From a virus (lineage: Duplodnaviria > Caudoviricetes): DNA of 64,000 nt. Positions within the stretch are counted from its first letter, which is position 1. The number at the start of each line of letters is the position of its first letter. The DNA lies in IMG/VR virus record IMGVR_UViG_3300030333_001364, positions 1 through 64,000 of that record; one strand, 5' to 3'. The notes beneath the pieces were generated by a model. The model had not been told where the DNA came from. It worked only from the letters and a program-made list of their open reading frames with translations, and did no database searches. Positions 3,994 through 24,400 of the stretch are shown piece after piece. The translations under genes and the position numbers were made by a program.

Positions 3994-4115
3994 TCTATGA
4001 ACCAAAAACTGAGACTGTCAAGTTTTATAATGCAATGGCACTATATTTTGATGACAGCATCACATTTGAAGAATTTACAACTATCGTGGAGGATTTGAGA
4101 AATGAGGACATGTAA
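3990..4115 (+). CDS. Small early protein (41 aa)
   Basis: MIYEPKTETVKFYNAM..., ATGA-coupled. Confidence 0.55.
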   Translation: MIYEPKTETVKFYNAMALYFDDSITFEEFTTIVEDLRNEDM

Positions 4116-4245
4116 GGAAACAAGAGTGATTCTATCCCCTAAGGATAGAGCATATCTCAGAATAGAAACAAGTTATCGTGATCTCGCATATATCTACTTC
4201 ACTATGATAGAGCAAGATTTTCGTGTATTGAACAAACCAATGTGA
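4102..4245 (+). CDS. Small early protein (47 aa)
   Basis: MRTCKETRVILSPKDR..., with GGAGG upstream; stop codon lies inside the next cassette. Confidence 0.5.
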   Translation: MRTCKETRVILSPKDRAYLRIETSYRDLAYIYFTMIEQDFRVLNKPM

Positions 4246-4301
4246 CAGTTATCAAACTGTCTACAAATCGTCCAATAGTCTCACTATTCGATTATTATGA
4301 T
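4241..4301 (+). promoter_or_regulatory. Early promoter cassette
   Basis: TGTGACAGTT-ATCA-AACTGTCTAC; TATTAT/TATGAT at 4293-4301. Confidence 0.75.
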
Positions 4302-4326
4302 ACCATAAGCAATTCATTTTATTATT

Positions 4327-4521
4327 ATGCAATTTCAAATCGGAGACTACGTCAAGACTACTGAAGAGTTCAATAACTCTCAATGTGTCACATGTGTAGG
4401 TAAGGTTATTGGTCTAGGGGATAACTATGCTATCGTAAGAAATTATGATAGTACTTGTGAAGAATTAGACTTTATGAGTTTATTTCAATCTGACTTGCAA
4501 TTAGTGAGAGATCTAATCTGA
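4327..4521 (+). CDS. Early hypothetical protein, possible SH3-like/KOW beta-barrel
   Basis: FQIGDYVK...GKVIG...AIVR...DLQLV pattern. Confidence 0.65.
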   Translation: MQFQIGDYVKTTEEFNNSQCVTCVGKVIGLGDNYAIVRNYDSTCEELDFMSLFQSDLQLVRDLI

Positions 4522-4603
4522 TCTCTCATTTATCCTAATTAGAGAGGCGAAAGCGTGTATCAAATTATACATTACTTCGTCTATGCGTGTATGTGTGTAC
4601 GCA

Positions 4604-4664
4604 TGTGACACTTTTATTACTGTCTACTACTGTCACTATTACTCACAATACCGACTAATATAGT
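4604..4664 (+). promoter_or_regulatory. Early promoter cassette
   Basis: TGTGACACTTTTATTACTGTCTAC; TAATAT/TATAGT at 4656-4664. Confidence 0.7.
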
Positions 4665-4686
4665 ATCAAGTAAATCTTTTATTATT

Positions 4687-4905
4687 ATGACTCTTTCAAT
4701 TACAAAACGTGAGGTATTATCTCAAGTCAGATATAATCTCAAAGTTGAATCTATGAGACGTAAAAACATAGGTATCAAACAAATGAGTAAATTAGATAAA
4801 GTCTTTTATTGGTCAGATTTTACTGAAGCATTGTATAGAGATCAAATTATAACTGAATCTCAAATCCGTAGGTGGTCTAATCCTTATGAATTTCGTAACT
4901 ATTAG
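4687..4905 (+). CDS. Early hypothetical protein
   Basis: WSDFTEALYRDQIITESQ..RWSNPY motif; TTATTATG start. Confidence 0.75.
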   Translation: MTLSITKREVLSQVRYNLKVESMRRKNIGIKQMSKLDKVFYWSDFTEALYRDQIITESQIRRWSNPYEFRNY

Positions 4906-4920
4906 AGATAAAATCAAAGA

Positions 4921-4981
4921 GTGTGACAGTTATATTAGTGTCACATTCTTTGTACAATTCTCATGAACTTACGTTTATCAT
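4921..4981 (+). promoter_or_regulatory. Early promoter cassette
   Basis: GTGTGACAGTTATATTAGTGTCACA; TATCAT at 4976. Confidence 0.75.
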
Positions 4982-5009
4982 AGGGTTATACAACATTTAT
5001 TCAATCGTT

Positions 5010-5501
5010 ATGGAATTTGATCTCAACCAACTAACCAACAAATATCTTTGGTCTACATTCTCAAAACCGTCTCAAGATACGTCTTTGTTTATGAGAATGT
5101 ATTGTAACCAAAAAACTGTCAATACTGATGACCATAAAATTGGTAATACTGAGACTAAGGTACGTCAAGACGGTTCTAAAATTGTAGATGTATTTCTACA
5201 TGGTAACCTTATATGCTCATATGACCCTACCAACTATGAGAATGAAAAGGTAAAATTGTATAGTGCTAATCACTTCACAAAAACAACTAAGGATAGACTC
5301 AACGCTATTCTATACTTGCATACTAATAATACTGTTAGAATCAAGCAAGTTAGAGGTAAGTGGATAGTATCAGATACAAAAACAGATACGGAAATAAATT
5401 TCTATGAGGGCATGGTAATTTTTCAAAAACCACTCACTCTTGCTGATGTATCAAATGATACAAAGATAGAAACTCAAATGGTTGTGGAGTGGACGGTATA
5501 A
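5010..5501 (+). CDS. Conserved cyanophage early hypothetical protein (start moved to ATG 5010)
   Basis: VFLHGNLI...TKTTKDRLNAIL motif. The upstream part of the track ORF is the promoter cassette. Confidence 0.75.
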   Translation: MEFDLNQLTNKYLWSTFSKPSQDTSLFMRMYCNQKTVNTDDHKIGNTETKVRQDGSKIVDVFLHGNLICSYDPTNYENEKVKLYSANHFTKTTKDRLNAILYLHTNNTVRIKQVRGKWIVSDTKTDTEINFYEGMVIFQKPLTLADVSNDTKIETQMVVEWTV

Positions 5502-5547
5502 AAACCGTCCATTTTTACTTCCATTATTCAGATTATGCTTTTATAAT
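5489..5547 (+). promoter_or_regulatory. Early promoter cassette, compensatory variant
   Basis: Perfect inverted repeat TGGACGGT-ATAAAA-ACCGTCCA; TATAAT at 5542. Confidence 0.7.
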
Positions 5548-5574
5548 GGATACATAAGCAATTTTATTTCAATC

Positions 5575-5916
5575 ATGACTACTCTAAAAACAATTCTACT
5601 AGATGCAATAAACAATGATCTAGCATCTAGCACTTATGATAATCCTATTCTAAACAATAAGGATTATAAAAACTGGTCAGATAGTGACAAATTTGAATGG
5701 TGCTTTGATAGGTACATGGTAGAGGTAGGTGGTTATGAATCCCTAGAATATTGGTTCTCAGGGTTAGCACTTAGTTCAATTCCATTTACTTATTATGAAA
5801 TTGAAAAGTTAGGATACAATGCTGAGACATTCTTTCAAGACTTATCTGACGAATTACAACTAATTACAGGTTATTCAGACAGAAAAGCATTTTATAACAG
5901 AAAGATACGCTCATAG
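5575..5916 (+). CDS. Early hypothetical protein (start moved to ATG 5575)
   Basis: LEYWFSGLA..IPFTYYEI motif; follows a promoter cassette. Confidence 0.7.
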   Translation: MTTLKTILLDAINNDLASSTYDNPILNNKDYKNWSDSDKFEWCFDRYMVEVGGYESLEYWFSGLALSSIPFTYYEIEKLGYNAETFFQDLSDELQLITGYSDRKAFYNRKIRS

Positions 5917-5951
5917 GTATCATTTTATACCAGGCGCATAGGTTAGACTTC

Positions 5952-6061
5952 TTCGTCTAATCTATTCGTCTATTATACTAATTACTTCGTCCATTCGTCT
6001 ATTTTTCTTATTATGTTCGTCTATTCGTCTAAATTACTGCAATTACTAGGTATTTCGTCTA
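5952..6061 (+). repeat. Cluster of seven TTCGTC(T/C)A direct repeats
   Basis: TTCGTC at 5952, 5965, 5986, 5994, 6016, 6024 and 6054, all on the + strand. Confidence 0.85.
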
Positions 6062-6262
6062 TTCTCCTAGTATGCTTATATGCTCATATTGTTTATAATA
6101 TAACCCTATTATCTACATTATGAACTATAATAAAAAGGTATAAATAAATGTTTTTTATTTCTTTATACATTATTATAAATGTGCTATGTAATTGTACTCT
6201 TAGCGAGCATGCTATAAAAAGTCAAGTACATTTGATACAATGCTCACAAATCCACACATGAG

Positions 6263-6295
6263 TTTTCCACAGGTTTTTCCACAGAGTTTTCCACA
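6263..6295 (+). promoter_or_regulatory. Three tandem cyanobacterial-type DnaA boxes
   Basis: TTTTCCACA at 6263, 6275 and 6287 (12-bp period); degenerate AAATCCACA at 6248. Confidence 0.7.
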
Positions 6296-6316
6296 GGCAC
6301 TATGATACACTCACAG

Positions 6317-6480
6317 GTAACAAATGTTACACAGCACAATGATACAGCAGCATGTATCAAATGTTACATGCACACTATGAGGTATAATATGATACAATAA
6401 AAATAACAGTACATTTGATATTCTGTCAAGTACATATGATACAATCTCATGTATCAAATGTTACATGTATCAAAATATAC
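6317..6480. promoter_or_regulatory. Array of NtcA-type GTA-N8-TAC palindromes
   Basis: Perfect sites at 6317, 6354, 6382, 6451 and 6467. TGTATCAAATGTTACATG occurs twice. Confidence 0.6.
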
Positions 6481-6689
6481 AATGTATAAAATGTACATAT
6501 CTTTTTTCCAGGAATTATGCTAGACTTAGGAGGGTGACTTTTGTAGAGATTATTTCATGGCAGGGGGAGTGTCGAACATTTTCTAAAGTCCTACCCCAGA
6601 CTTGCTATAACCAGTATAGCAAAATCAGAAAAAGACTGCTGTACATATGATACAATTTGATGTGACATATGATACAAACTCATGTAACA

Positions 6690-6748
6690 GAAACAGTTGA
6701 GAAATTGGCACATTGCCTATTGTGTAGATTTGAAATCCAGACTAATAT
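6690..6748 (+). promoter_or_regulatory. Early promoter cassette
   Basis: GAAACAGTTGAGAAATTGGCACA, then TTGTGT (6720)-17 nt-TAATAT (6743). Confidence 0.7.
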
Positions 6749-6781
6749 AGGTACATACAAAACATTATTTCATTCTTTATC

Positions 6782-7108
6782 ATGTTCGGAACTGCACCTA
6801 ACACTTACAAAATCAACACTAACTTCAATAATGTTGAGTTCAATGTAAGTACTAAGGCATGTCTCAAAGTTATTAGAAACAATCCTAAGGGAATCAACCT
6901 AACTGACATAGTTAGAACTTTACACCCTGATTTTGATTTCAATCTTCTAACTAAGCATAACTTCGCTAAAGCAATTCAACCCTTAGTCGTGAATCGTCAA
7001 GTGAAAGCGATTATGTCAGCATCTGGAAAGCGTGTTCAGATGTACAAACCAGTGAAACCTTCAAAGCGTGTTATCTTTGCTCAGTTCATAAAAGATATTA
7101 CTGCTTAG
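6782..7108 (+). CDS. Basic putative winged-helix DNA-binding protein
   Basis: Helix-GINLTDIVRTL-helix (FAKAIQPLV..RQV), then a beta-hairpin wing (KAIMS..GKRVQMYKP). K/R rich. Confidence 0.55.
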   Translation: MFGTAPNTYKINTNFNNVEFNVSTKACLKVIRNNPKGINLTDIVRTLHPDFDFNLLTKHNFAKAIQPLVVNRQVKAIMSASGKRVQMYKPVKPSKRVIFAQFIKDITA

Positions 7109-7122
7109 TTTCCAGGATTTGA

Positions 7123-7157
7123 CAGGTGGGTTCGTTCCGTTTACCCACCTCTGTTTT
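7123..7157 (+). terminator. Putative intrinsic terminator
   Basis: AGGTGGGT/ACCCACCT stem followed by CTGTTTT, right after the 6782 gene. Confidence 0.55.
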
Positions 7158-7231
7158 ATAAATCATGTAACACAGTTCGTCCCATCTGTCAACCACATAA
7201 CAAGCGTAATGTTCGCACCTCACACTCTCAG

Positions 7232-7262
7232 GTATCAGATTATACAGTGTATAATTTGTTAC
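7232..7262. promoter_or_regulatory. Two further tandem GTA-N8-TAC palindromes
   Basis: GTATCAGATTATAC 7232-7245 and GTATAATTTGTTAC 7249-7262. Confidence 0.55.
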
Positions 7263-7430
7263 CTTTTTTATTTAATGTTAGCGTTGCCGATATTAATAAG
7301 TACCGTCTTTCTAACCTACAAACGTTTACCAACGAGCGAGGTACCGAGAAATCAAAATTTTTTTCCCGTACCAAAAACCCCCTATAGGTTTTAAAAAGCC
7401 TAGATACTCTGTATCGTTGCTCGGTATATT

Positions 7431-7937
7431 ATGATAACTTTTGATACAAGTCCCTTAGAGTACTATAGGGGAAAAGGCAAAGATCCCATACGTGGCAGTA
7501 CTAACAATGACACCTCTACATGGTCATTCATGTTAGTCAAGACAATTACATATGAAAGAGAAGAGCAATACCAGAGAGTAATCGACGCTTTAGATAATTT
7601 GACCAGAGAAAATTTTTCGAGTATAAAAGTGCCCTCCTTTGCTTTTTGTGCCGAGGGTATGAGTATTCAGTATCAGGTTCAGTATATCAAAGGAGGAAGT
7701 ATTATATCCAGAGAGGAATGGTATACTCTATATGATGAACTGGTTGAAAGAGATAGTGAATACAGTTTTACAGATTATAAAAGAAAGAACTTCATCAAGT
7801 ATCATGGTAACATCTATCCAGTAGATCTGAACAGTTATAGCAAGACACCGATTGAAGTCAGACGTACCCTGTGGAAAAGAGAAGAAAAGATGCCAAAGAC
7901 ATTATTCAATCAACAGGGAGAGAAGATATTCTACTAA
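7431..7937 (+). CDS. Protein-kinase-like (PKL) fold protein
   Basis: Ordered motifs VKT, KVP, YIKG, DYKRKN (DxxxxN catalytic loop) and PVDLN (DFG-equivalent). Confidence 0.55.
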   Translation: MITFDTSPLEYYRGKGKDPIRGSTNNDTSTWSFMLVKTITYEREEQYQRVIDALDNLTRENFSSIKVPSFAFCAEGMSIQYQVQYIKGGSIISREEWYTLYDELVERDSEYSFTDYKRKNFIKYHGNIYPVDLNSYSKTPIEVRRTLWKREEKMPKTLFNQQGEKIFY

Positions 7938-8143
7938 GGTTTGACAACAAAGTACTTGTGTAGTACTGCAACCTGTTCGTCGTACTTAGCAATGGTATTG
8001 AGTTCTTTCTCGATTGCATCTGTGATATCTGAATGTTCACCGATACCAGCAGGGTTGGATAGGTAGACTTCTACATTTGCTACATGCTTGGCAATGTCTC
8101 CTTTTGCATGATCGAGTAATGCGTTGACTAATTGATCTCTCAT
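7934..8143 (-). CDS. Conserved marine-phage hypothetical protein
   Basis: NVEVYLSNPAGIGEHSDI..AIEKEL motif. Confidence 0.8.
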   Translation of the reverse strand: MRDQLVNALLDHAKGDIAKHVANVEVYLSNPAGIGEHSDITDAIEKELNTIAKYDEQVAVLHKYFVVKP

Positions 8144-8235
8144 TGTGAATTACGTGCATCAAAGTACTTTTGCATTGTAGCACCATACCATATCAGTACG
8201 GATACTTCTGCGAGAATAATGAAAGGAATAATCAT
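8140..8235 (-). CDS. Small membrane peptide (31 aa)
   Basis: MIIPFIILAEVSVLIWYG..., ATGA-coupled on both sides. Confidence 0.5.
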   Translation of the reverse strand: MIIPFIILAEVSVLIWYGATMQKYFDARNSQ

Positions 8236-8642
8236 TTTGTATAAGCGTTGATAAGTGGGTTGTTTAGGATTGCAGGATCTGCAAGAGATGGTTCATAGTC
8301 TTCTGGTATATCGAAGTCGATGTAATTGAAGTCTCCTCTTCTCTTTAGGTCTTCCATTTCGATGAGAATGGTAGCAGTTGCACCAAGATCATCTACCGCT
8401 TGTGCCATACGTCTGAATCCTGTGCCCACGATGAATTGTCCCACGACAACTGCAAGTGTCGCAGTTCCCCAGAAATAATAGTAGAAGGAAGACTTGACTT
8501 GTGCCTTTGCTTTTGTATAAGCATTCGGTTTCAGATGAGCAGTACTCATCAATGGTTCTCCTGCTGCTTTTGCAGCATCACTTGCTGCTTTAAGATTCGC
8601 CAGAGATTGTATGTCAGATTGGAATCCTTTTTTGGACTTCAT
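8232..8642 (-). CDS. Single-pass membrane hypothetical protein
   Basis: Hydrophobic segment FYYYFWGTATLAVVVGQFIVG. Confidence 0.7.
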   Translation of the reverse strand: MKSKKGFQSDIQSLANLKAASDAAKAAGEPLMSTAHLKPNAYTKAKAQVKSSFYYYFWGTATLAVVVGQFIVGTGFRRMAQAVDDLGATATILIEMEDLKRRGDFNYIDFDIPEDYEPSLADPAILNNPLINAYTK

Positions 8643-8673
8643 TATAAAACTTGTGTCTCTCTATATTATAACA

Positions 8674-8835
8674 CTAATAGGAATGTTCTTCAACCCCTTC
8701 TTCGACTTCAAATGCTGAATAAGATATATCTTCTTTAAAATAAGATCTGTATATTCTTCCCCATATGATCTTAAACTCCCCTTCTGATAGATCTTTGAAG
8801 AGACATTCTCCTCGAAAGTAAATGTGGTAAATCAT
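8674..8835 (-). CDS. Small cyanophage protein (53 aa)
   Basis: MIYHIYFRGECLFKDLSEGEF..., translated by hand; ATGA-coupled. Confidence 0.7.
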   Translation of the reverse strand: MIYHIYFRGECLFKDLSEGEFKIIWGRIYRSYFKEDISYSAFEVEEGVEEHSY

Positions 8836-9044
8836 TCTTCTGGCGTTTCTGTAGGGTGTTTGAATACTAACAATTCCTCTCCGTACTTCACTCCCTCCAT
8901 TTCGGGATGTGGTGCCGGAAGTTTTGTCTTAGGTTTATTTACTTCTTTGAATACTTCTCCCATGCTCCGGAAAAAGAATGCAAACGTCATTCCTGCAAGT
9001 GCAAAGAATCCGAGTAGATATACTGTAATGAAAATGGTGTTCAT
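8832..9044 (-). CDS. Small membrane protein, DUF2973-like
   Basis: N-terminal TM helix plus a PHPEM...EELLVF motif. Confidence 0.65.
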   Translation of the reverse strand: MNTIFITVYLLGFFALAGMTFAFFFRSMGEVFKEVNKPKTKLPAPHPEMEGVKYGEELLVFKHPTETPEE

Positions 9045-9151
9045 TTCTTTTTGGTTCTATTTTCCCATGCTATGAATGCTTTATAACCTAAGTAACCTCG
9101 TGCCAAGTCCACTGCTACGAACGTTATACATCCGATCAGTATGACTTCCAT
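9041..9151 (-). CDS. Small membrane peptide (36 aa)
   Basis: MEVILIGCITFVAVDL..., coupled to both neighbours. Confidence 0.5.
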   Translation of the reverse strand: MEVILIGCITFVAVDLARGYLGYKAFIAWENRTKKK

Positions 9152-9648
9152 TACTGTATCAACTCTGGTAATGGATCTCCCTCGTCAGGCGGGAGCGTAC
9201 CTCTTCTCATCCGTAAGTCTCTCAACTCATCGAAGTCTTTCTTCTTTGTTCCACCATCATACGGCCATGCATAACCTTCACCGATCATTTCCTCATTGAG
9301 TGATACAGTAGCATCCCCAACATATAACCAACCAAGAAGCCGACCATACTTACCCACGCCACCTTTGAGTTCGGTTCTGATAATAAGTTCATCTTCTCCT
9401 TTTATAGTATCGTCAAGTTTCTTCTTCAACCAGTTAGTCGCATCTATACCCAGTGCCTTCTCTTCTAGATCTCTTGTCCTCTTCTCAGGAGTATCGACTC
9501 CGGCAACCCTCACTCTCTCCTTCTTCATCAAATCAAATCCCAAATCAATCGTCACATCTATAGTGTCGCCATCGACAACTCTGTTGACTTTGACTACACG
9601 AAAGTTATAACAACTCTTACGACTTGGTGGAACCATCACTCCCATCAT
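9151..9648 (-). CDS. Staphylococcal-nuclease (SNase/thermonuclease) family endonuclease
   Basis: VVDGDT, RVAGVDTPE and KYGRLLG motifs. Confidence 0.9.
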   Translation of the reverse strand: MMGVMVPPSRKSCYNFRVVKVNRVVDGDTIDVTIDLGFDLMKKERVRVAGVDTPEKRTRDLEEKALGIDATNWLKKKLDDTIKGEDELIIRTELKGGVGKYGRLLGWLYVGDATVSLNEEMIGEGYAWPYDGGTKKKDFDELRDLRMRRGTLPPDEGDPLPELIQ

Positions 9649-9745
9649 TCATCTCCTTATAAGCCATACTCAGTATATAGTAGATATACCAAGACACGAT
9701 TACGAGCAGAATTGCTATCATCCAGACGACTCCCCAGACTATCAC
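9617..9745 (-). CDS. Small membrane protein (42 aa)
   Basis: MIVWGVVWMIAILLVIVSWYIYYIL..., translated by hand; GTGA overlap. Confidence 0.55.
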   Translation of the reverse strand: MIVWGVVWMIAILLVIVSWYIYYILSMAYKEMNDGSDGSTKS

Positions 9746-10524
9746 AGCATCTTCTCCACAATCGGTTTCATGAATTTTACGATATCAATATTTCCCTGCT
9801 TTGTCGGATGGAATGAATGGGGGTTTACCATACCTTTTCTCTGTAGTAAATCAATCCGATGGCAGTCATCAAACCAATCTGAGAAATGGAACTTGTCTTT
9901 ATTACCTCTCCAACCATTTCTTCTTGCCAGAGTCGTACACATATCTTCTTCTAATGCAGGATTTGGTATGACACCAGTAGTATTCAGTGTCTCAAAGAAT
10001 GCATAGGGCACTCCGAGTGCATCAAAATAGTGCTGCCAATGAAGTATATTGTTTGTCAAGTCTCTCAGAAATACTTTTTCGTCAAAATGTTCCTTGAAAT
10101 AGGCAAAAGTATCGAATCCAGTCTTCTCCCTTTCTCTCAATCGGTTAGTAGGATCGTTTTTTGCTTGATTGAATGACACAGATGAGTAACTTTTGAGTCT
10201 ATTGAACCATAATTCATCACGATAGATGGATGTAATACCCCATAAGACAGCAGTATTTTCCCAATCTACCTCATTTTCTGCAAAATATTTGGTTGCACGA
10301 CGGAATTGTGACTGATTTGATGACCCACCCTTCGATATATTGATGTTTGTAAGGTTCAATTCATCACAAAGTTTGAGTCTCCAGCATGTATCGTCTACAA
10401 AATCTCCTTTTCCACCTTCTTTTTTGAATCTTGCCTTGTAAGTTGCCTTGTCGACAGGGTTTTCTGCATCATAATATGACCCAATACCAAAAACCCAACT
10501 GCATCCGAGTGTTATAAGGTTCAT
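9742..10524 (-). CDS. SGNH/GDSL-hydrolase-like protein
   Basis: GCSW (block I), NISKGGSSN (block II) and C-terminal HP. Confidence 0.7.
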   Translation of the reverse strand: MNLITLGCSWVFGIGSYYDAENPVDKATYKARFKKEGGKGDFVDDTCWRLKLCDELNLTNINISKGGSSNQSQFRRATKYFAENEVDWENTAVLWGITSIYRDELWFNRLKSYSSVSFNQAKNDPTNRLREREKTGFDTFAYFKEHFDEKVFLRDLTNNILHWQHYFDALGVPYAFFETLNTTGVIPNPALEEDMCTTLARRNGWRGNKDKFHFSDWFDDCHRIDLLQRKGMVNPHSFHPTKQGNIDIVKFMKPIVEKML

Positions 10525-11300
10525 ATTTTGATTACTTCGTCGAATAACTTTGCTATTCTAGCATGTGCTTCACGAGTTGGGTGGTATGAGTAAGGATTTA
10601 CTAATTCTTTCTTCTCTAAAAACTTCATTCTCCTACTATCATCGTTGTTGAACTGCGAAACATGGTACTCATCAGGGTCATAATTATCAAATTCAAGGTC
10701 TTCACATAGTATAGACATCAAATCTCTGTATTTTCTATCATTGAAGAGCATCCTATCTATAGGAATAGGGTAGTCATGATGGTTGAATGTGTCAAACCAG
10801 TAGTTTTCAATACCCATTCCTTCAAAAAAGAGGTTCCAATGCCTCATCTTATGTGAAAGTTCTTTGATTTTTTGCTTTTTATCGAAGTGCCACTCCAAAT
10901 GATGGTTGACATCAAACCTTTTATGCTTCATATTGACATCTCGATTCATTCCATGACCATATAATACGTTCTGATACCCCGATTTACCTTGATGGTTCTT
11001 TGTCAACCATATCTCATGCCTGAAAACTGAGGTGATACCCCATAATACTACGACTCTTTCTCTAGGTTTCTTCTTGAAGTAGGTGGTTGCTCTACGAAAC
11101 TGTCTATCATTACTACTACCCATCTGTGAAAAGTTGAGATTAGTACACTTCCACTTCTTTGTAAGCAATCCTCGGAAGGATAATTCATCACAGAGGATGT
11201 CATCATCATTTTTGTCCTTATATTCTTCTTCCTTCATGCCCTTCTTGTATGCCACACCGACACCACGAGTCCATGAACAACCTAATGTGACTAATAACAT
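10521..11300 (-). CDS. SGNH/GDSL-hydrolase-like protein (paralog)
   Basis: GCSW, NFSQMGSSN, LWGITS and YHPT motifs; clearly paralogous to the adjacent gene. Confidence 0.7.
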   Translation of the reverse strand: MLLVTLGCSWTRGVGVAYKKGMKEEEYKDKNDDDILCDELSFRGLLTKKWKCTNLNFSQMGSSNDRQFRRATTYFKKKPRERVVVLWGITSVFRHEIWLTKNHQGKSGYQNVLYGHGMNRDVNMKHKRFDVNHHLEWHFDKKQKIKELSHKMRHWNLFFEGMGIENYWFDTFNHHDYPIPIDRMLFNDRKYRDLMSILCEDLEFDNYDPDEYHVSQFNNDDSRRMKFLEKKELVNPYSYHPTREAHARIAKLFDEVIKI

Positions 11301-11394
11301 GGACAACTCATCATTATTTTGAAGGATCTCTGATATTTGTCCTTGAACAACTTACGAAACATGATCATTGTCATGATATGTGTCTGTTGGAATG

Positions 11395-12372
11395 CTATTT
11401 TTTCCATGATGAAGGTAGATACCCAAAGGTATTTTTGAAATCTGTGTAATATCTAGACATGTAGAGGTGAGCACTATGCAAATCCTGCTCTTCTAGGTCA
11501 TCTATATCACTTTCCCACTGATCTTGTAGGAATGGGAGGTGAGGAGCACGACTTCCCATGTTGGGAACGTAACAATTGTCATGAAGTTTTGTAATTTTAT
11601 ACGACAAAAAGTTACTTAGTGCTTCGAGTTGCTCTTTTTCTTGATTTTTATCCCACAAATCTTCCATTATGGTAACATAAGTATTATCTACACCGAATAC
11701 AGAGGCAAATTTACTGTATGCTCCGGAGAAATCACATAAAGAACTACAACAATCCTGTTTTAGAAGGTGAAAGAACAGTTGTTTGTGTTTTTTCTTGCGA
11801 ATTAGGAATCTAGTCTTCATATCTTCCTTATGTTCGACGGAATATTCAAATTTTTTGTTCAATAAACTACCAACTTCCGAAAAATAGCGTCTTACTGGGT
11901 CACGAAACTGAAAAGTGACCTTTACATTGAAGTGTTCTCGCAATTTAGGAGCAACTTCCGCCCAAAATTCGTATGGAAGTGCGTAATTTCCGTTTGTGAA
12001 GTCGCAAACTGCTGCATAAGTGTCTTTTACGGTCTCCCAATGACTCTTCCAGTAAGAAATGTAGTTTTCTATTGACGGAGGACTTGCCAAATACGGGTCT
12101 AGCGGAGTTTTAACCGCAAATTTGTTTTTTTGCGACAAGTATTGACCCCAAGGATGATTAGAAGGACGCTTATTGTATAAATTTTGACCAGAACAGTATA
12201 TTTCTTTGAAATGATCTTCGTATTTTGGATATTCGCATAATCTTTTGAGATACCAGTTCTCTTTCAGGTGTCCCATGTGTGCATATTTGTTATCAAGCGT
12301 CAAAGTATAGTGGAAGGGAGTGGTCGCTGCCCATCCGACGCCAGGATTCAATAATAATGTTGGTTTAGACAT
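11395..12372 (-). CDS. Sulfotransferase-fold protein
   Basis: N-terminal GVGWAATT loop, KE motif, FRDPVRR (3'-phosphate-binding-like). Confidence 0.7.
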   Translation of the reverse strand: MSKPTLLLNPGVGWAATTPFHYTLTLDNKYAHMGHLKENWYLKRLCEYPKYEDHFKEIYCSGQNLYNKRPSNHPWGQYLSQKNKFAVKTPLDPYLASPPSIENYISYWKSHWETVKDTYAAVCDFTNGNYALPYEFWAEVAPKLREHFNVKVTFQFRDPVRRYFSEVGSLLNKKFEYSVEHKEDMKTRFLIRKKKHKQLFFHLLKQDCCSSLCDFSGAYSKFASVFGVDNTYVTIMEDLWDKNQEKEQLEALSNFLSYKITKLHDNCYVPNMGSRAPHLPFLQDQWESDIDDLEEQDLHSAHLYMSRYYTDFKNTFGYLPSSWKK

Positions 12373-12397
12373 ATATACAGTAGTTATGGTGGAACAA

Positions 12398-12553
12398 ATG
12401 TCCTATGACGTCTACCTAGATAATGAGATTGTTTTTTCTGTACTTACTAGACAGCAAGCAGAAGAAAAACGTGACCAAATGCAGAAAATGATTATGGCAG
12501 GACTAAAAACTGATTATACTGCCGAGCAAATCTCGATAAAGTATCACTCGTAA
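12398..12553 (+). CDS. Small cyanophage protein (51 aa)
   Basis: MSYDVYLDNEIVF...; TAATG-coupled to the next gene. Confidence 0.6.
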   Translation: MSYDVYLDNEIVFSVLTRQQAEEKRDQMQKMIMAGLKTDYTAEQISIKYHS

Positions 12554-16437: not shown

Positions 16438-18491
16438 TGGCACTACAGCAATTTACAAACTTAAACTTTGAGGATATAAAGTCATCCATAAAGGATTACC
16501 TTAGAGCAAATACTCAATTCAAAGATATGGATTTTGAAGGGTCTAACCTTTCTATCCTAATTGACATACTAGCGTATAACTCATATACCACAGCATACAA
16601 TACAAATATGGCGATCAATGAGACATTCATTGATAGTGCCACTCTGAGAGAGAATGTAGTATCATTAGCAAGAAATATAGGTTATGTTCCAAGATCCAGA
16701 AGAGCAGCGAGAGCAACTGTCAATTTCAGTGCATCGGGTATAACATCTACAACAAAACAGATAACATTTCAACCAGGTGTAATTGCAAACGGTTCAGTAT
16801 CAAATATAAACTATGTCTTCTCTCTACCTGAGGCTGTGTCATTCAATGCCTTCAATGGATCATCTAGAGGTGTGTTGGTAATATATCAAGGTCAATATGT
16901 CACTAACTCATATGTCGTAGACAATAACAATCCTAGTGAGAGATATGTTTTACCTAATGATGGTATAGACACTTCTACAATTAGTGTAAAGATAAGGAAT
17001 AGTTCTACTGATAACACAACAACAAGTTATGAGTTAGCAGATAACATTATAGGAATTACATCAACATCTAATATCTACTTGTTACAAGAGACAACAGATG
17101 AGAAATACGAACTCTTATTTGGTGATGATGTATTCGGTAAAAAGTTAGAGTCAGGAAATATAATTGATATTAGTTACATAAAGACTAATGGTAAAGCAGG
17201 AAATGGTATAGAAAACTTCAATTTTGCTGGTCTTATAAAGGATGAAGATGGTGCTGATGAAACAGACTTTAGAATGTTCCTTTCTGCTAATGAAAAATCC
17301 GCTAATGGTGATGAGATAGAACCAGTAGAGTCTGTCAAATACTATGCTCCACGTTTATATGCAGCACAGCATAGAGCAGTGACTGCTAATGACTATGAAG
17401 CAATAATCCCATCAATATATCCAAATATAGAATCTGTGAGTGCCTATGGTGGAGAGGATCTCAATCCACCACAATTTGGTAGGGTATTCATAGCAGCAAA
17501 ACCAAAGAATGGTTCGTTCTTGTCAGAACTAACAAAGAAGCAATTACTCAATTCACTGAAGAATTATTCCATAGCAGGAATAGTTCCATCATTTGTGGAT
17601 CTAAAATTCTTGTATGTGGAGATTGATTCGTATATTTACTACAACTCAAACTTTGTAGGTGATCCTGACAATCTAAAGACAGATGTAATAACTTCACTAT
17701 CACAGTATGCATCAGGCACTGAACTCAATAAGTTTGGTGGTAGATTTGCTTATAGTAAAGTATTGTCAGTTATAGACAATGTAGATACTTCTATTACGTC
17801 TAACATAACTTTAGTAAAAATGCGAAGGAATATCAATACTAAGATAAACCAATTCGCACAATATGAATTATGTTTCTTGAATCAGATATATGCACCAAAT
17901 GAGAAATACAATATTCACTCAACTGGATTCAATGTATCTGATGTGGTGGGTACTTGTTACTTTAGTGATATAAAGGTCAATGAGGACTCAGGAACACTAT
18001 TCATGTTCCAGATTCTAAATGATGAGAGTATCAAAGTTATATCAAATAACTTTGGACGTATTGATTACAAGGAGGGTGAGATAGTATTAGACACAGTAAA
18101 CATCACATCAACAATAGAGAATGATGATGTAATTGAGGTAGAAGCAGTACCTCAGTCTAACGATGTTCTTGCCAAAAACGAATTGTACTTGCAGTTTGAC
18201 ATATCAAAGAGTGATTTCTACACAAGAATAGATAGCATCTCTACTGGTGCTAATACATCAGGTTCTAGATATCTTCCAGAGTCAAGTTACTTTGCAGATA
18301 AGAAGGTTAGAGGAGCAATTATCACAAGCACCACTACAGAAACAACTTTAGTGGGATATGTGAATGGTCAACCATATTATGGAGAATTCCATGTTATGGC
18401 AGGAGGAAACAAGATGACAGGTGCAACACATACAGTTGCAAGTCAGCAGATTACAGATACACCACAGACAATTAGCAATAGCGGATACTAA
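16437..18491 (+). CDS. gp6: Baseplate wedge subunit gp6
   Basis: DFEGSNLSILIDILAYN, LARNIGY and RAVTANDY motifs. Confidence 0.92.
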   Translation: MALQQFTNLNFEDIKSSIKDYLRANTQFKDMDFEGSNLSILIDILAYNSYTTAYNTNMAINETFIDSATLRENVVSLARNIGYVPRSRRAARATVNFSASGITSTTKQITFQPGVIANGSVSNINYVFSLPEAVSFNAFNGSSRGVLVIYQGQYVTNSYVVDNNNPSERYVLPNDGIDTSTISVKIRNSSTDNTTTSYELADNIIGITSTSNIYLLQETTDEKYELLFGDDVFGKKLESGNIIDISYIKTNGKAGNGIENFNFAGLIKDEDGADETDFRMFLSANEKSANGDEIEPVESVKYYAPRLYAAQHRAVTANDYEAIIPSIYPNIESVSAYGGEDLNPPQFGRVFIAAKPKNGSFLSELTKKQLLNSLKNYSIAGIVPSFVDLKFLYVEIDSYIYYNSNFVGDPDNLKTDVITSLSQYASGTELNKFGGRFAYSKVLSVIDNVDTSITSNITLVKMRRNINTKINQFAQYELCFLNQIYAPNEKYNIHSTGFNVSDVVGTCYFSDIKVNEDSGTLFMFQILNDESIKVISNNFGRIDYKEGEIVLDTVNITSTIENDDVIEVEAVPQSNDVLAKNELYLQFDISKSDFYTRIDSISTGANTSGSRYLPESSYFADKKVRGAIITSTTTETTLVGYVNGQPYYGEFHVMAGGNKMTGATHTVASQQITDTPQTISNSGY

Positions 18492-21400
18492 TGATAGAAA
18501 CCTCGTTATCTAGAGTCAAAATCAATGAAGTAGTTCAGAGTCAAATACCTGAATTCATTGATGCCGATAATCCTAACTTCGGTGATTTCTTAAAACAATA
18601 TTATCTCTCTCAGGAATTCCAAGGGGGACCTGTTGATATTGCTGAGAACCTTGTTGACTACAAGGGTTTAGACTTTCTAAACAATAGGAACCTAATCGGA
18701 TTCACTTCACTATCTCAATACCTCAAGGGTAGAGAAGATACGATATATGTTGACTCTACAAACGGGTGGCCAACCTCTTACGGTTTGTTGAAAATTGATA
18801 ATGAGATCATTACTTACACAGGTATAGGAAAGACAACATTTACAGGTTGTATAAGAGGTTTCAGTGGTATAGAGAATAATAAAAAAACGAATCAACCAGA
18901 ATATCTAACATTTACAAAGACAGGTATAGGAACACATGCTAATAATTCACGTGTAGAGAATCTTAGTAATGTATTTCTACAAAATTTCTATAAGAAACTA
19001 AAAACACAGGTGCTACCTGGTTTTACTGAGAGAAGTTTACATGGAAAGGTTTCTAAGGGTAATTTTATAAGACAAGCGATAGACTTCTATCGTTCAAAGG
19101 GAACAGAAGAAGCATATCAGATATTATTTGGTGCACTGTATGGTGAAAAGGTTGAGATGATTCAACCAGCAAAGTTTTTGATCAAACCATCAGATGCAGA
19201 TTATATTAGGACAGAAACTATAATTGCAAAACAGGTTCAGGGTGATGCTCAAAAGTTATCTGGACAAACATTGTTTCAGAACACTAACCCACAGACCAGT
19301 GGGTCGATATACAACGTAGGTAGTAGTATAATTAATGGTGAAACATATTACAGTTTCGCTATTTCTGAAGGAACAACCTTTGGAAAATTTGTTCAAAAGA
19401 ATAAAACCTATGTTACATCAAGTACTCCAGTTGGATCTACTGTTATTAATGTTGATAGCACTGTGGGCTTCGACACCTCAGGTAAATTCAATATTGGGAA
19501 CGTTTCTTACTCGTATACAGGAAAGAACTACACGCAGTTCACGGGCATAACAAGCACAACAACTCTTATAGGGTTAGGTACTACAATCACACAAGGACCT
19601 GACGCTTATGTGTATGATGATAATACTTTAGTCACAGTTGAGATAGTAGGATCTCTTACTAAATTCAACGGTTCTGCTCTAAACCAAGTAGAAGATAGTT
19701 CTATAAATGTAAAGACTGTTGGAAAGGAACAGGATAGTCTAAGATGGTCTAGTTGGATTCATAATGTATCTCCCAAATATAATGTTGTAACCTTTAGAAC
19801 TCTGTCATCATCAAGTTATGAGTTGACTCTGAATGCAGAGCACTCATTGTACTTTGGTGACGAGATAGAAATAGTAGATGCAGATGGTGTAATACTGAAT
19901 GGATCAGTTGTAGCACTACTATCTGACACAAGAGTATCTGTAACATGTGGAACACTATCAGAACTGAAAGAATATTATGTACGACGAAAAATCAAGACTA
20001 ATCTCGGTGCCTCTGCTGACATACAGAACAGTTACTCTGATTCTTCAGAGAATGTGTTTGTTGCGTCCAACTCCATCCCTCACTGGACAATCAATCCACA
20101 GAAAAGAATAAGATTATTTGATACTGTCAATGAGTCATTAGGTACAACAATCAATATTGCAGATCACAATTACTATGATGGTGATCTTGTTACTTACACA
20201 GTAGCGGTAGGAAATAAACTTACTAACTTCAATGTGGGTGAGTCATATTATGTAAAGAGACTTACTCCAAATAGCATTGCTCTTGCATATACTGCTGAGA
20301 ACATTAGAAGTGGAAAATATATAACTGCGTTTACATCTACAGACTTAGCATCTCTTTCAGTTCATAATCTTACACCAAGTCTCTTTTATGGTACTGAGAT
20401 AGGACCTCAAAAACTATTACGTAAATTCCCTAAACCAGTATATGCTGACGACCATGAGAAGACTAAACAGGGTGGAGTAGGTTTATTTGCTAATGGTGTT
20501 GAGATATATTCATACAAAGCAACAGACACTGTAAACTTTGGAACATTAGAAAGTGTTGATGTTCTTAACACTGGTGATGATTATGATGTTATAAACCCTC
20601 CTAGTCTATCTGTGACACAGGTAGGACATTCTGGGGTCGGAGCATCTGTTATAGCACAGATGAAAGGAGAACTTACCGATGTTCTTGTAGAAACACCAGG
20701 TTTAGATTACTTGGAGACACCAACAGTATCAATCGTAGGTGGAAACAATAAAGATGCAGTTGTAAAAGCAGTTATGAAGATTGCTCCAATCACATTGGAG
20801 TTTGACAGCACCTCACAAGGAGGTATCGTAAATACTGCGACTGATAGATTTGTATTCTCAGACCCTCATGGATTAGTAGATGCAGAAGAGATTATATACA
20901 CCACCAATAGTAGTACACCCATAGGGATAGGCACTACACCTGGCACATTAGTTGATACATCTCCATACTTTGTAGTAAAAATCAACGACCATGAGTTCTT
21001 CCTATCAGAGTCTAAGAATGAAGCATTGTTAGGTATAGGAACTATTCCTATATCACAGAATGGTGGTGGATTACATCAGTTCAAAACAACTCGTAGAAGA
21101 CTTACTGTAGATAAGATTGGTATAGAAAATTCTGGATTATTCTACAATAGAAGACTAGAGACTGTATCTGGTATAAACACTTATATTGATCATATCAATA
21201 TTGATAGACATGGTTTTGAGTCAGGAGAGAAGATAAAGTACTCTTCATCTATAGGAGCTGCTGCTGGTCTAACAAATAACTCAGAATATTATGTTATAAA
21301 GATTGATGCAAACTCCTTTAGATTATCATCATCAGAAGATCTTTCAGACCATGTTGATATAACATCTACAGGTAGTGGTGTACATACATTCCAAGATCCT

Positions 21401-24400
21401 CCCATCAACATTGTTATCAATGGTAGACAGGGAATCAGTACATTCAATGCTACAGCACAACCATTGATACGTGGTAAGATTATAGGAGCACATGTCAATA
21501 ATAAAGGAACTGACTTTGGATCTAAGGTTATAAACGATGACTTCAAACCAGATGTTACAGCAGTCATAGGTGACAAAGCATTCTTACAACCATTCATTAT
21601 CAATGGTAGAGTAGATCAAATAATAATCAAATCAGGTGGTGAGAACTTTGTCAGTATCCCTGATATAGTGATCACTGGTGATGGTGTAGGTGCAAAGGCA
21701 AAGGCAGTTGTATCTGGTGGTAAGATAGTTGCAATCAATATGATTGAGAAGGGTGCAAACTATACACAGTCAGCAACAACTGTAAAAGCAGAAACACCTG
21801 GTGATGGTGCTATATTCTCATCTAATGTAAAAGAGTGGACAGTCAATCAGGTAGAGAGATATGCAAAGATAAATGACGTCATGCCTGATGATGGATTCTA
21901 TGAGGTTCAACGTGATTCTGAATTAGGTAACCCATATGTAAACTATTATGTTCCTCGTAATCTAAGAACATACCTAGGTGACAATGGAAGTGAACACTCT
22001 CCTATCTTGGGTTGGGCATATGACGGTAATCCAATCTACGGTCCTTACGTTTACAAGGAAGCAGATGGTGGTGGTGGATTAGATTATATCAAGTCATCTT
22101 ACGATAAGTTGACTGGTGAAAGAACTAACGGACCTTCTATCACAGAATATCCTTCTGGATTCTTTGTAGAAGATTTCACATACACACCTGGTAAAGGTGA
22201 TCTAGATGAGCACAATGGTAGATTTGGTGTAACACCAGACTATCCAAATGGAGTATATGCATACTACACAACTGTACAACCATCTCAAGTTGCTAATGCT
22301 GGTAACCCATTCAACCGTGCTAGAGTTCCAGTATTCCCATATGTAGTGGGTGACTCATACAAATCTAAAGTAGAACCACTAAATCTAGGGTATAACTTTG
22401 ATCAAGATGTGGATCCTGTATCATACGGTTTAATTAGAAACGTCAAACCTTATAATATCAATGATTATGAATTTATCTCGAATTCTCAGAAGAACACAAA
22501 ACTCGCTTCCAAAATCATACGTGCAAGCAGTGGTAGTGTTAGTGGAATTGACCTTATCGATGGCGGTAGCGAGTATCGTGTTGGTGACGCTCTACTATTT
22601 GATAATGAAAGAACCGATGGATTTGGTGCAATTGGATCTGTTCGCAAGATTTACGGACCACAACTCAATAACATCACGACAACAGTACAACGGTTACCAG
22701 ACACAACTTTTATATACTCTCCTGGACAGATTACAGGTATAACAACTGTACCTCATGGATTCCTAACTGGAACAGATGTAAACATAAGAAATGTATCTGG
22801 AACAGAGCATGATGTAATACAGGGTATGCATAGAATTACAGTTCCTAGAGTAATCTCAGGAATTGCAAGTGCTATAGAAGACTTAGGTGGTGGTGGCAAC
22901 TCAGGTCTTACCACCAGCATCAGACTTGTTGATGATGTAAACAAATTCAAAGTAAATGACATCATCAGAATTGATCATGAAGAGTTGAAGATATTTGGTA
23001 TTGATACATTACAGAATGAGATAGATTGTCTAAGAATACAAAATGGAACTCCTGGCACAGGACACACTGTATTCAGTAAAGTTGAAAAATTAGTAAATGA
23101 ATTTACATTCCCACTATCAGGTTGCCCAGAAACACCTGTAGATTACACAGTTTACTTTGATGCTGCAAATGTAGTTGGTGCTGGTTTGTCAGCAGGAACT
23201 GGTATAGGTCATACTATCAATTCAAAAGACTTTGGTACACGTAAGATACCAACACAGACAATCTTCTTACCAAGACATAGTATTCAGCATGGTGAGAAAC
23301 TTTCATATTCACCTGGTGCTGGTACAACTCTTTCATATCAGGCACCTGGCGTTGGTACTGCATCTGGTTGGTCTGCACCTTTACCATCAGAAGTATATGG
23401 TTATGTTATAGATCAGAATCTAGTAGGTATCGTAACAACTGTTGCTGGAATTAGATCTTCCTCAGAAAGAGTCTTCTTCTACCCAGACCAGACTGGTATT
23501 GGTAACACACACTTCTTCCAGACTGTCAGAGGACAAATCACAGGTGACATAGACATTGTCAAGGTTACTGCTACAACTAATGAAGAACATACCCTGAGAC
23601 CCCTTGATATCATTGACTTGTCAGTGGTCTCTACTGGTACAAGTTCTCTTACTATGTCTTATGATTCTGCTACTAGATTTGTAAGTATAGGTTCATCTGT
23701 CAACCCACTCATAAAGGTTAGAGAAGGTGACTTGTTAGAATTTGATGTTTCTAATGGTTCATTACAGAATACTAAATTAGAGTTTTACGAAGACCCAGAG
23801 TTCAAGAAGCAATTTGTAGGATCTGGTGTCTCTGCTATGGAGATCACATATACAGCAGCACATGGTGAAGCTGGTGGTAAAGCATCTATAAGATTCACAC
23901 CACAAGCACCTAAGGTTGTATATTACAAACTGGCATCTCAGGATATATCAAAAGTTATTGAGACTAATAAAGATATTGATGATTATACTAAGATAATTGT
24001 TATACCAAGTGAGTTCACTGGTAAGGGTACAATCACTTCAGTAACCAGCACCTCCTTTGACTACTTTATAGATCAAGAGGCAGAAAGAGTAGGTTATACT
24101 ACCAACACTGCTGTGATGTCATATACAACTGAATCACAGAACGATCACGGTCCTATAGCACAGGTTCAACTTGTGTCTGGTGGTGTAGGGTTCAAAGATA
24201 TACCTCAAGTCTCAGTGGCGAGTACAACTGGTAGGTCAGCACTCATAGAAGCAAGAGGAGATGATATTGGTAGACTTGATGAAGTTCAACTTATAGACAT
24301 TGGTTTTGATTATCCTTCTGATAAGACACTAAAACCACAGGCAGCGATGCCACAGGTTGTATTCCTAAAAGATAACTTCTCAGTTGACACTGTAGCAATT

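Follow-up and report, generated by a model that had tools for sequence, protein, structure and literature searches.

A single-copy cluster of NtcA-like palindromes in the early-gene region of an uncultured marine cyanomyovirus clade

The operators of the nitrogen regulator NtcA in Prochlorococcus, of which that of glnA is an example (PMC5767323, in the part available), share their core, spacing, dyad symmetry and an extended half-site, TGTATCAA, with a group of palindromes in the viral contig IMGVR_UViG_3300030333_001364, a 118,972-nucleotide (nt) record of IMG/VR with a CheckV completeness estimate of 55%, whose first 64 kb form the window analysed here. Host operators are found as one imperfect site per gene, usually GTA-N8-AAC and placed for activation, whereas the phage carries about 11 strong sites in 3 kb, with both halves perfect and some sites abutting, away from nitrogen genes and without the downstream -10 spacing. 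The idea that cyanomyovirus DNA carries host NtcA boxes, with expression following 2-oxoglutarate, has been published before: for the 16 cyanomyoviruses then known, Sullivan et al. (2010) gave 1-16 predicted NtcA sites per genome, with an average of 8.9, and proposed NtcA-driven phage expression; as far as the available part of their paper goes, those sites are dispersed before varied genes, while the ones described here form one cluster (PMC3037559). Two predicted NtcA sites before viral focA-nirA were described by Gazitua et al. in 2021 (PMC8115048, available part). Judged against the available part of the 2010 paper, only the dense single-copy cluster is new. Our literature search found no description of a clustered array of NtcA sites in a phage, nor of an NtcA decoy.

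In Synechocystis, the promoters of gifA and gifB are repressed by NtcA, whose sites there overlap the start site or the -10 element. Each of these promoters has one or two NtcA sites, unlike the phage cluster, although both systems place sites at the -10 or start. Many high-affinity sites for one protein are also gathered at a single non-coding locus in E. coli datA, plasmid iteron arrays and lambda ori, all of which bind replication initiators. The phage array resembles these loci in its clustering of sites beside origin-like features; here, however, the best candidate binder is a metabolic transcription factor. A third comparison is with the early promoter and stem-loop cassettes of T4-type phages, known as PeSLs (PMC2839356, PMC4122927), which share with our locus the repeated cassettes between small early open reading frames (ORFs), the G-run/C-run stem-loop and break points within repeats; PeSLs, however, use plain sigma-70 consensus promoters scattered through hyperplastic regions, and here the palindrome is confined to one locus. 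Lastly, the PadR-s2 repressors (PMC3506622, in the part available) are similar in size and predicted layout to P0001, a small protein encoded beside the phage cluster, and their ATGT-N8-10-ACAT operators share TGT-N10-ACA with the phage sites, but P0001 has no sequence membership in that family and its predicted dimer interface is not the C-terminal helix.

The palindrome cluster and its likeness to host operators

Seven exact GTA-N8-TAC sites (starting at 6317, 6354, 6382, 6451, 6467, 7232 and 7249), one GTG variant (TGTGACATATGATACA, 6661-6676) and four elements with N7 spacing (6226, 6430, 6484 and 6641) had been noted at 6226-7262 in the original prediction, and all of them are present. 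The accompanying claim, that this is far more than one promoter needs, is supported, and the counts also lie far beyond chance: the 1037 nt hold 7 N8 sites (mean 0.40, maximum 4 in 2000 dinucleotide shuffles) and 4 N7 sites (mean 0.40, maximum 3), and none of the shuffles reaches either number. Over the whole window there are 38 GTA-N8-TAC sites against 19.58 ± 4.93 in 100 shuffles, the largest of which holds 34. Two details needed revision. The limits of the cluster are wider than first given, with N8 sites also at 4557, 5448 and 5917, and the N7 elements, though correctly placed, are not loose copies of the palindrome; they form a distinct conserved composite, (TTGTCAA)GTACATWTGATACAAT, which is present in both orientations in relatives and sometimes as inverted pairs.

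The concentration of the motif at one place holds for the entire contig. Ten of its 61 N8 sites lie in 4500-7500, a segment that thus has the exact core of an NtcA site ten times and a GTG variant once, and 14 of the 47 copies of the half-site TGATACA/TGTATCA fall within the same 3 kb, where 1.2 would be expected. A motif matrix built from 53 unique sites of the window and its relatives gives the consensus TGTATCAAATG(T/A)TACA, also written TGTATCAAATGTTACA; the extended consensus proposed earlier comes close to this matrix (T-GTA-T-C-A-W-W-T-G-A/T-TAC-A). Scanning the contig with it returns 12 positions of at least 12 bits, 11 of which are in 4500-7500 at 15.5-23.3 bits; the sole strong match outside the cluster (14.9 bits) is coding, at 33824 within the ORF for a 2353-amino-acid (aa) protein at 31124-38185, and the next best scores 10.5. 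The motif is therefore one cluster and not a genome-wide usage. Its fixed letters are GTA and TAC, while the outer T of TGT is absent on one or both sides at 5 of the 11 sites.

The fit to NtcA sites goes beyond these fixed letters. We took as host reference the upstream DNA of ntcA, glnA, amt1, urtA and glnB in three complete high-light Prochlorococcus genomes, in which there is one conserved site per gene. Those of ntcA (-62), glnA (-63), urtA (-90) and glnB (-336) read TGTATCAA-NN-GTAAC(A/T), so that the phage half-site is the one found upstream of all four, and that of amt1 (-97) reads GGTAWCAAC-N-ACTACT. The phage consensus agrees with the host at 13 of the 14 positions that the host specifies, including T5, C6, A7 and A8, which lie outside the textbook motif; at the single mismatch, position 13, the phage carries the canonical T. 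The phage matrix likewise finds host sites within loci of 3.3-4.4 kb: it ranks that of ntcA first (3/3), that of glnB first (3/3) and that of glnA second (3/3), while amt1 comes second to fourth in its three loci and urtA second, third and below third. An oligonucleotide from MED4 glnA that NtcA bound in calorimetry contains TGTATCAAAGGTAACT (PMC5767323, available part). The claim that the motif is of NtcA type is thus strengthened, and the best description of the phage sites is that of idealised, fully symmetric NtcA boxes.

Relatives of the locus were recovered through the P0001 protein as 18 metagenome loci, 16 of which were scored (L144 and L147, with the gene cut at the locus end, were dropped); among them L136 is the same contig as L007 and L137 nearly the same. 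Upstream DNA of 600 nt or more is available for 14 loci, each of which has 8-17 GTA-N7/8-TAC sites upstream of the gene and usually 2-4 just downstream, and most of which keep the DnaA-like box triplet and the iterons described below as well; in two of them (L145, L146) the protein is only about 50% identical. In 11 of 12 loci none of 500 shuffles reaches the observed N8 count, and in the twelfth (L134) 7 of 500 do. Five more viral contigs (L268-L272), in which the homologue is of the P0018 branch and about 36% identical to P0001, carry the same arrays. When six related records were scanned whole, 32 of 33 sites lay in the cluster beside the P0001-family gene, including 9 of 10 in the 122.7-kb record, the largest. 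In the aligned array of five loci, indels add and remove entire sites; it is the array that is maintained, not each individual site.

Outside this clade the cluster was not encountered. No intergenic cluster is present in six cultured cyanomyoviruses that we scanned (Syn1, P-SSM2, P-SSM4, P-HM2, P-HM1 and DSL-LC02), in which TGTA-N8-TACA is dispersed at 6-17 copies per genome against 4-9 for a reversed control; the three matches to the extended consensus in P-HM2 are all in gp7-like or YapH-like coding sequence, and P-HM1 has 4 matches, not located individually. A BLAST search with the array against 50,697 phage records returned nothing related, and tblastn with P0001 gave no match there. Most of the loci with several matches in an IMG/VR scan for TGTATCAAATGWTACA are coding repeats with periods of 72-150 nt or giant ORFs (e.g., a 4663-aa ORF in G007). 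The same scan also turned up unrelated marine phage contigs with 2-4 tandem copies of the 16-mer TGTATCAWWTGATACA, namely G004 (L251:10553-10634), G005 (L252:8544-8596) and G006 (L253:5215-5253), the first with four copies at an exact spacing of 22 nt at the contig end; we set all three aside as evidence concerning NtcA.

Layout of the control region

The description of the region as non-coding phage DNA is supported. Its features are as follows, with the strand where a feature has one.

4556-4571: outlying palindrome TGTATCAAATTATACA, 21.5 bits, followed by one TTCGTCTA iteron at 4576 and lying about 130 nt upstream of the ORF at 4687-4905.
5447-5462: top-scoring palindrome TGTATCAAATGATACA, 23.3 bits, within the 3' end of the ORF at 4923-5501 (Kyano_Gp96 family), ahead of a hairpin at 5491-5517.
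5916-5931: palindrome GGTATCATTTTATACC, 19.8 bits, immediately 3' of the stop codon of the ORF at 5575-5916.
5952-6061, plus strand: seven direct TTCGTCTA repeats (six exact, one TTCGTCCA), all on the same strand and kept in relatives.
6066-6225: AT-rich stretch of 160 nt, 0.77 A+T, near-invariant between relatives, with TATAAATA at 6138-6145.
6226-6240, plus strand: type B composite GTACATTTGATACAA (N7 site), whose 3' part, TGATACAAT, is extended -10-like.
6263-6295, plus strand: three DnaA-box-like TTTTCCACA boxes at 12-nt spacing, in a 42-nt stretch 93-95% identical in S-RIM44, Syn1 and Sf-FR1.
6316-6331, 6353-6368 and 6381-6396: three palindromes, the first two each preceded by ATGATACA in a 36-nt repeat unit, the third containing TATAAT and TACAAT.
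6430-6496: densest block, with a type B element (6430-6444), two abutting palindromes (6450-6465 and 6466-6481) and an N7 site (6484-6496).
6559-6600, plus strand: conserved GGGGG...CCCC stem-loop, present in two copies in the relative L007, where they flank an extra gene cassette of 550 nt.
6641-6676: two elements at a position shared by all relatives, 105-140 nt ahead of the following gene, namely a type B element (6641-6655) with the extended -10 TGATACAAT and, at 6661-6676, the palindrome of the GTG variant.
6782-7108, plus strand: P0001 gene, 108 aa, predicted winged helix and C-terminal helix, without a Pfam or PHROG family, always beside the array.
7124-7157, plus strand: hairpin AGGTGGG...CCCACCT followed by CTGTTTT, after the P0001 gene, identical in L007; the terminator scan did not call it.
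7231-7263: two palindromes one base apart (7231-7246 and 7248-7263), 3' of P0001 and about 170-200 nt upstream of the ORF at 7431-7937, the second containing TATAAT.

The three single palindromes (4556, 5447 and 5916) mark the borders of small plus-strand ORFs, and the dense array as a whole occupies 6316-6496. Within its densest block the sites follow one another at centre-to-centre distances of 21.5, 16 and 16.5 nt; over ten loci the commonest distances between neighbours are 21-22 nt (25 cases), 16-17 (15), 28 (9), 37 (6) and 46-48 (12), many of these counts coming from orthologous positions and being hence non-independent. The 36-nt unit consists of ATGATACA, six or seven further letters and TGTATCAAATGTTACA, and its minus strand reads GTAACA-N17-TATCAT, three times. 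With TATAAT inside the sites at 6382 and 7249, palindromes in this region overlap or abut -10-like elements. Pairs of -35 and -10 elements within the palindromes were considered and rejected, as the plus-strand spacers measure 11-15 nt.

Upstream of the dense array, the non-coding DNA at 6066-6330 hardly varies among relatives whose remaining sequence differs by about 20%, and the seven exact TTCGTCTA copies of the 119-kb contig all fall within 4576-6061. We take TATAAATA in the AT-rich stretch to be T4 late-promoter-like, and TTTTCCACA shares 8 of 9 letters with the E. coli DnaA box consensus. A structured RNA at 6120-6340 was unsupported (single-sequence fold z -0.34; covariation term +0.95 in an alignment of eight loci, with 1 of 35 pairs compensatory). 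The box triplet (TTTTCCACAGG, 6261-6302) matches intergenic DNA of the distant cyanomyoviruses S-RIM44, Syn1 and Sf-FR1; in Syn1 it adjoins a 2OG-Fe(II) oxygenase gene, in an orientation opposite to the flanking genes and without palindromes nearby. In L007 (3353-3884), compared with window position 6665, the extra cassette of about 550 nt comprises a small ORF, the second GGGGG...CCCC element and more palindromes, and its break points fall in the repeated motif, as with PeSL-mediated shuffling.

Candidate binders and competing explanations

Starting from what can be observed, i.e., the sites, their excess, their confinement to a single locus, their conservation in the clade and their likeness to host operators, we put forward a tentative model, which infers what binds, whether binding activates or represses, and how replication might be involved. 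The array would form the centre of a control region that is present once, among the early genes, and its palindromes would be optimised, fully symmetric versions of the host NtcA operator, to which the 2-oxoglutarate-responsive NtcA dimer would bind. Palindromes lie on or directly beside -10-like elements (TGATACAAT, TATAAT); if TGATACAAT is read as a -10, the palindrome of the 36-nt promoter-plus-palindrome unit falls at about +1 to +16. Since the palindromes overlap or directly follow such elements, occupancy would mostly block or gate transcription from the stacked early promoters, as opposed to classical activation. The adjoining small early genes, including that of the winged-helix protein, would then depend on the carbon/nitrogen status of the host, with a possible effect on transcription into the neighbouring segment of iterons, AT-rich DNA and DnaA-box-like repeats. 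That the motif remains constant while the adjoining protein falls to 50% and 36% identity fits a conserved host factor. MED4 has very few regulators, NtcA among them (bioRxiv 10.64898/2026.04.15.718746, in the part available), and the 119-kb contig, at its estimated 55% completeness, encodes no CRP-family protein. We would put at somewhat under even the chance that the array consists of NtcA operators, optimised in sequence, through which a promoter-rich early region is gated next to the iterons, the AT-rich stretch and the three DnaA-like boxes, and hold it about equally credible, short of an even bet, that host NtcA is the physiological binder.

Several observations weigh against this model. 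In class II activation by NtcA, a -10 box TAN3T stands 20-24 nt downstream of TAC and the site is centred near -41.5. At the phage sites TAN3T is found at that distance at 3 of 11 per strand against a background of 0.19, so the activator geometry is lacking. No nitrogen-metabolism gene adjoins the array, its neighbours being small ORFs without known function and the winged-helix protein. We know of no case in which NtcA accepts the N7 spacing of the four type B and N7 elements; a CRP-type dimer would not usually be expected at such elements or at abutting sites, and the sites 16-17 nt apart would crowd dimers of this type. The host sites were themselves deduced from position and conservation through a relaxed form of the same motif, with experimental support for MED4 glnA alone, and with the phage matrix they reach just 2-10 bits, where phage sites reach 15-23. 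The extended 16-mer, with one mismatch allowed, is found once in 5.1 Mb of host DNA and 6 times in the phage contig, so that the phage motif is far stricter than host usage. In the aligned array, site columns show no better conservation (identity 0.754) than the other intergenic columns (0.742) over five loci. The cluster is absent from all six cultured cyanomyoviruses, which also lack the P0001 gene, and this gene adjoins the array in every locus found, with sites on both its sides. Our literature search found no paper testing NtcA on cyanophage DNA. Finally, high-light Prochlorococcus is only a probable host, assigned by PTOX identity: nearly all of the best 80 genome matches of the phage PTOX are to high-light Prochlorococcus, at 67-69% identity.

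The constant presence of the P0001 gene beside the array lends weight to an alternative already raised in the original prediction, that the binder is encoded by the phage, although NtcA remains favoured. The palindromes would then be operators of P0001, a small dimeric winged-helix regulator that would bind on either side of its own gene and at nearby early cassettes in autoregulation, shut-off or the timing of early transcription, and the likeness to NtcA boxes would be partial coincidence, since both read TGT-N10-ACA, or a mimicry that lets the phage protein compete at NtcA boxes. P0001 belongs to a small family (16 cluster representatives) and has no Pfam or PHROG family; its only Pfam match at E up to 0.01 is Maf1, at 0.0014 and below the cut-off of that family. 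Sub-threshold Pfam matches across the P0001 family nonetheless converge on the winged helix (MarR 5.7e-4, TBPIP 7.6e-4, HTH_24 and HTH_IclR). An AlphaFold2 model from 19 sequences has a mean confidence (pLDDT) of 81.7 and shows three helices, a β-hairpin wing and a C-terminal helix; an earlier model from 13 sequences was unusable (pLDDT 50.6). The best 50 Foldseek matches, except for rank 50 (human LACTB2), are winged-helix proteins, nearly all of them bacterial or archaeal transcription regulators (PadR, MarR, YodB/QsrR, BlaI, Zur/Fur, TtgV), with probabilities of about 1.0 and E of 0.006-0.03, none at or below 0.001. VIA-align gives Z of 8-9.1 to many winged-helix families, none standing out, in the range (8-9) that the tool calls common. 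On the strength of this model and its matches, P0001 has a predicted winged-helix DNA-binding fold. Other leads proved weak, i.e., an ESM Atlas cluster bearing MarR_2 (0.93, 167 shared features) and profile matches in the Protein Data Bank to the Vps25 winged helix (E 0.81) and AdcR/MarR (E about 1), the top one being a spurious match to a de novo protein.

Self-association of P0001 is also predicted. The two-copy model scores 0.65 (median of three runs, one of which gave 0.11) against 0.01 for the best control, and passes the mark of the tool, which 20 of 30 proteins solved as homo-pairs reached, as did 1 of 23 known as single chains. Agreement between runs covers 4% of contacts or more, and the partner has a pLDDT of 77 or higher. 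The predicted interface is formed by residues 15-25 and one face of the helix at 59-70, the very helix expected to read DNA, a point against P0001 as the binder, as is the one low run. Operators of phage repressors usually abut at spacings of 16-22 nt, in keeping with the array. The clustering of 32 of 33 sites beside P0001-family genes in six related records points the same way, although recovery of the relatives through this gene means that adjacency is partly built in. PadR-type proteins of about 110 aa bind ATGT/ACAT inverted repeats 8-10 nt apart (PMC3506622, available part), and two window sites read the full ATGT-N10-ACAT; the fixed letters of the phage motif are, however, GTA/TAC, and both PadR halves are present at only those 2 of 11 sites. 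Nor was any PadR family found at E up to 0.1 among the matches listed for 14 P0001 relatives. It also tells against a P0001 operator that the motif is unchanged in relatives whose protein is down to 36% identity with a different third helix (KHNFAKAI in one branch, KRMFKQAI in another), and the agreement with the host NtcA half-site at A4, T5, C6, A7 and A8 would need chance or mimicry. The absence of a Pfam family over threshold and of any Foldseek E of 0.001, and a Z within the common range, weigh in the same direction. We regard P0001 as the main rival binder of the palindromes, less likely than NtcA.

A more ambitious version of the NtcA model makes the array both switch and sink. Operators read by NtcA would gate early transcription and the origin-like element, while the 11-17 perfect sites on each genome copy would out-compete the few dozen imperfect operators of the host, draining NtcA and collapsing or reshaping the nitrogen-stress response, and the winged-helix protein may compete for the same boxes. 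We consider this combination improbable.

It seems more doubtful still that the repeats are mainly early promoter/terminator cassettes of the phage, of the PeSL kind, providing promoter parts for host RNA polymerase and short homologies for the gain and loss of cassettes, with no dedicated regulator binding the palindromes. PeSL-type features are present, as the type B elements carry a good extended -10 (TGATACAAT), TATAAT lies within the sites at 6382 and 7249, and the minus strand of the 36-nt units reads GTAACA-N17-TATCAT; the GGGGG...CCCC stem-loop stands ahead of the promoter-like element upstream of P0001, as in PeSLs, the extra cassette of L007 ends in the repeated motif, whole sites turn over by indels, and sites flank each small ORF from 4.5 to 7.4 kb. 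Other early-gene intergenic regions nevertheless lack the motif, which is not used elsewhere in the contig; with 11 of 12 strong sites in 3 kb of 119 kb, it is not the general early promoter of the phage. Moreover, the motif is truly palindromic and keeps GTA/TAC fixed, position 6 of a -10 hexamer is not a T in most N8 sites, the elements are found in both orientations though the nearby genes are all on one strand, and promoter-like matches in 4400-8000 (26 against 19.2 ± 4.1 in shuffles) are in no clear excess. The cassette structure probably explains the spread and turnover of sites, but not a palindrome confined to one locus.

An equally slim prospect is that the segment from 5.9 to 6.7 kb is a replication origin, at which the palindromes would bind a phage or host initiator or architectural protein. 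Lambda ori is laid out in a similar way, combining palindromic iterons with AT-rich DNA and an initiator of the winged-helix type. Each genome has the segment once; its seven same-strand TTCGTCTA iterons, 160 nt of 0.77 A+T that might serve in unwinding and three TTTTCCACA boxes are all conserved in relatives, the box triplet even in distant cyanomyoviruses, and the commonest site spacing, 21-22 nt, equals two helical turns. Against this, we know of no T4-type phage that uses DnaA or iteron initiators, GC skew in the window tracks gene orientation without a switch at the segment, the boxes of Syn1 without palindromes show that the two are separable, and many of the spacing counts are orthologous. 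Several of these four readings (NtcA, P0001, cassettes and origin) could hold together.

The virus, its distribution and significance

By its Pfam matches the contig is a T4-like cyanomyovirus, and it belongs to an uncultured marine clade. Matches in the window include Kyano_Gp96, gp6, gp8, a neck protein, gp15, terminase, sheath, tube, portal gp20, prohead protease, scaffold and gp23; beyond it the contig encodes UvsY, UvsW, a gp55-like protein, gp45, gp44/62, RegA, gp43, UvsX, gp41 and primase, together with NrdB, transaldolase, two 2OG-Fe(II) oxygenases, PTOX, Hsp20, a Dam-class methylase and a DctP-type solute-binding protein of the TRAP class (contig 92,028-92,987, L149:8028-8987, Pfam E 1.2e-40), the last unusual as an auxiliary gene in a cyanomyovirus. 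Among the named phages in the matches listed, none has a portal more than 67% identical (Synechococcus phage DSL-LC02); a single-cell marine virus record reaches 80%. The baseplate and tail-fibre region contains two giant ORFs, of 2734 aa (18491-26695) and 2353 aa (31124-38185), and just 3' of the control region a block of minus-strand genes at 8000-12400, including a staphylococcal-nuclease homologue (9151-9648), breaks the otherwise plus-strand layout. No transfer RNA gene was found in the window, and Rfam on 4000-9000 gave a single chance microRNA match (E 0.92).

The phage is common, as near-identical DNA is present at a share of at least 0.81 in 15 marine runs, and all 20 runs that contain it come from 12 studies. 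Contigs from RNA libraries cover 6137-6326 in run X18 (191 nt, 100% identical) and, in four runs of three studies, extend over the 3' part of P0001 as far as about 7196-7235; such contigs give no strand, starts, ends or levels, DNA carry-over is possible, and stretches that they leave uncovered are uninformative.

Nitrogen limits Prochlorococcus over much of the ocean, and a response of infection to the nitrogen status of the host has so far been a proposal drawn from dispersed predicted NtcA sites. The present clade offers a compact, conserved DNA element of 0.5-1.3 kb. If a phage winged-helix protein binds it, the element would reveal a new family of phage regulators whose operator copies the box of a host regulator. 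With NtcA as the binder instead, the locus would be a clear example of a virus that gathers the sites of a host metabolic regulator in one place, and the cluster, with its roughly fifteen near-perfect NtcA-type sites, may tie the early programme of the virus to the nitrogen state of the cell.

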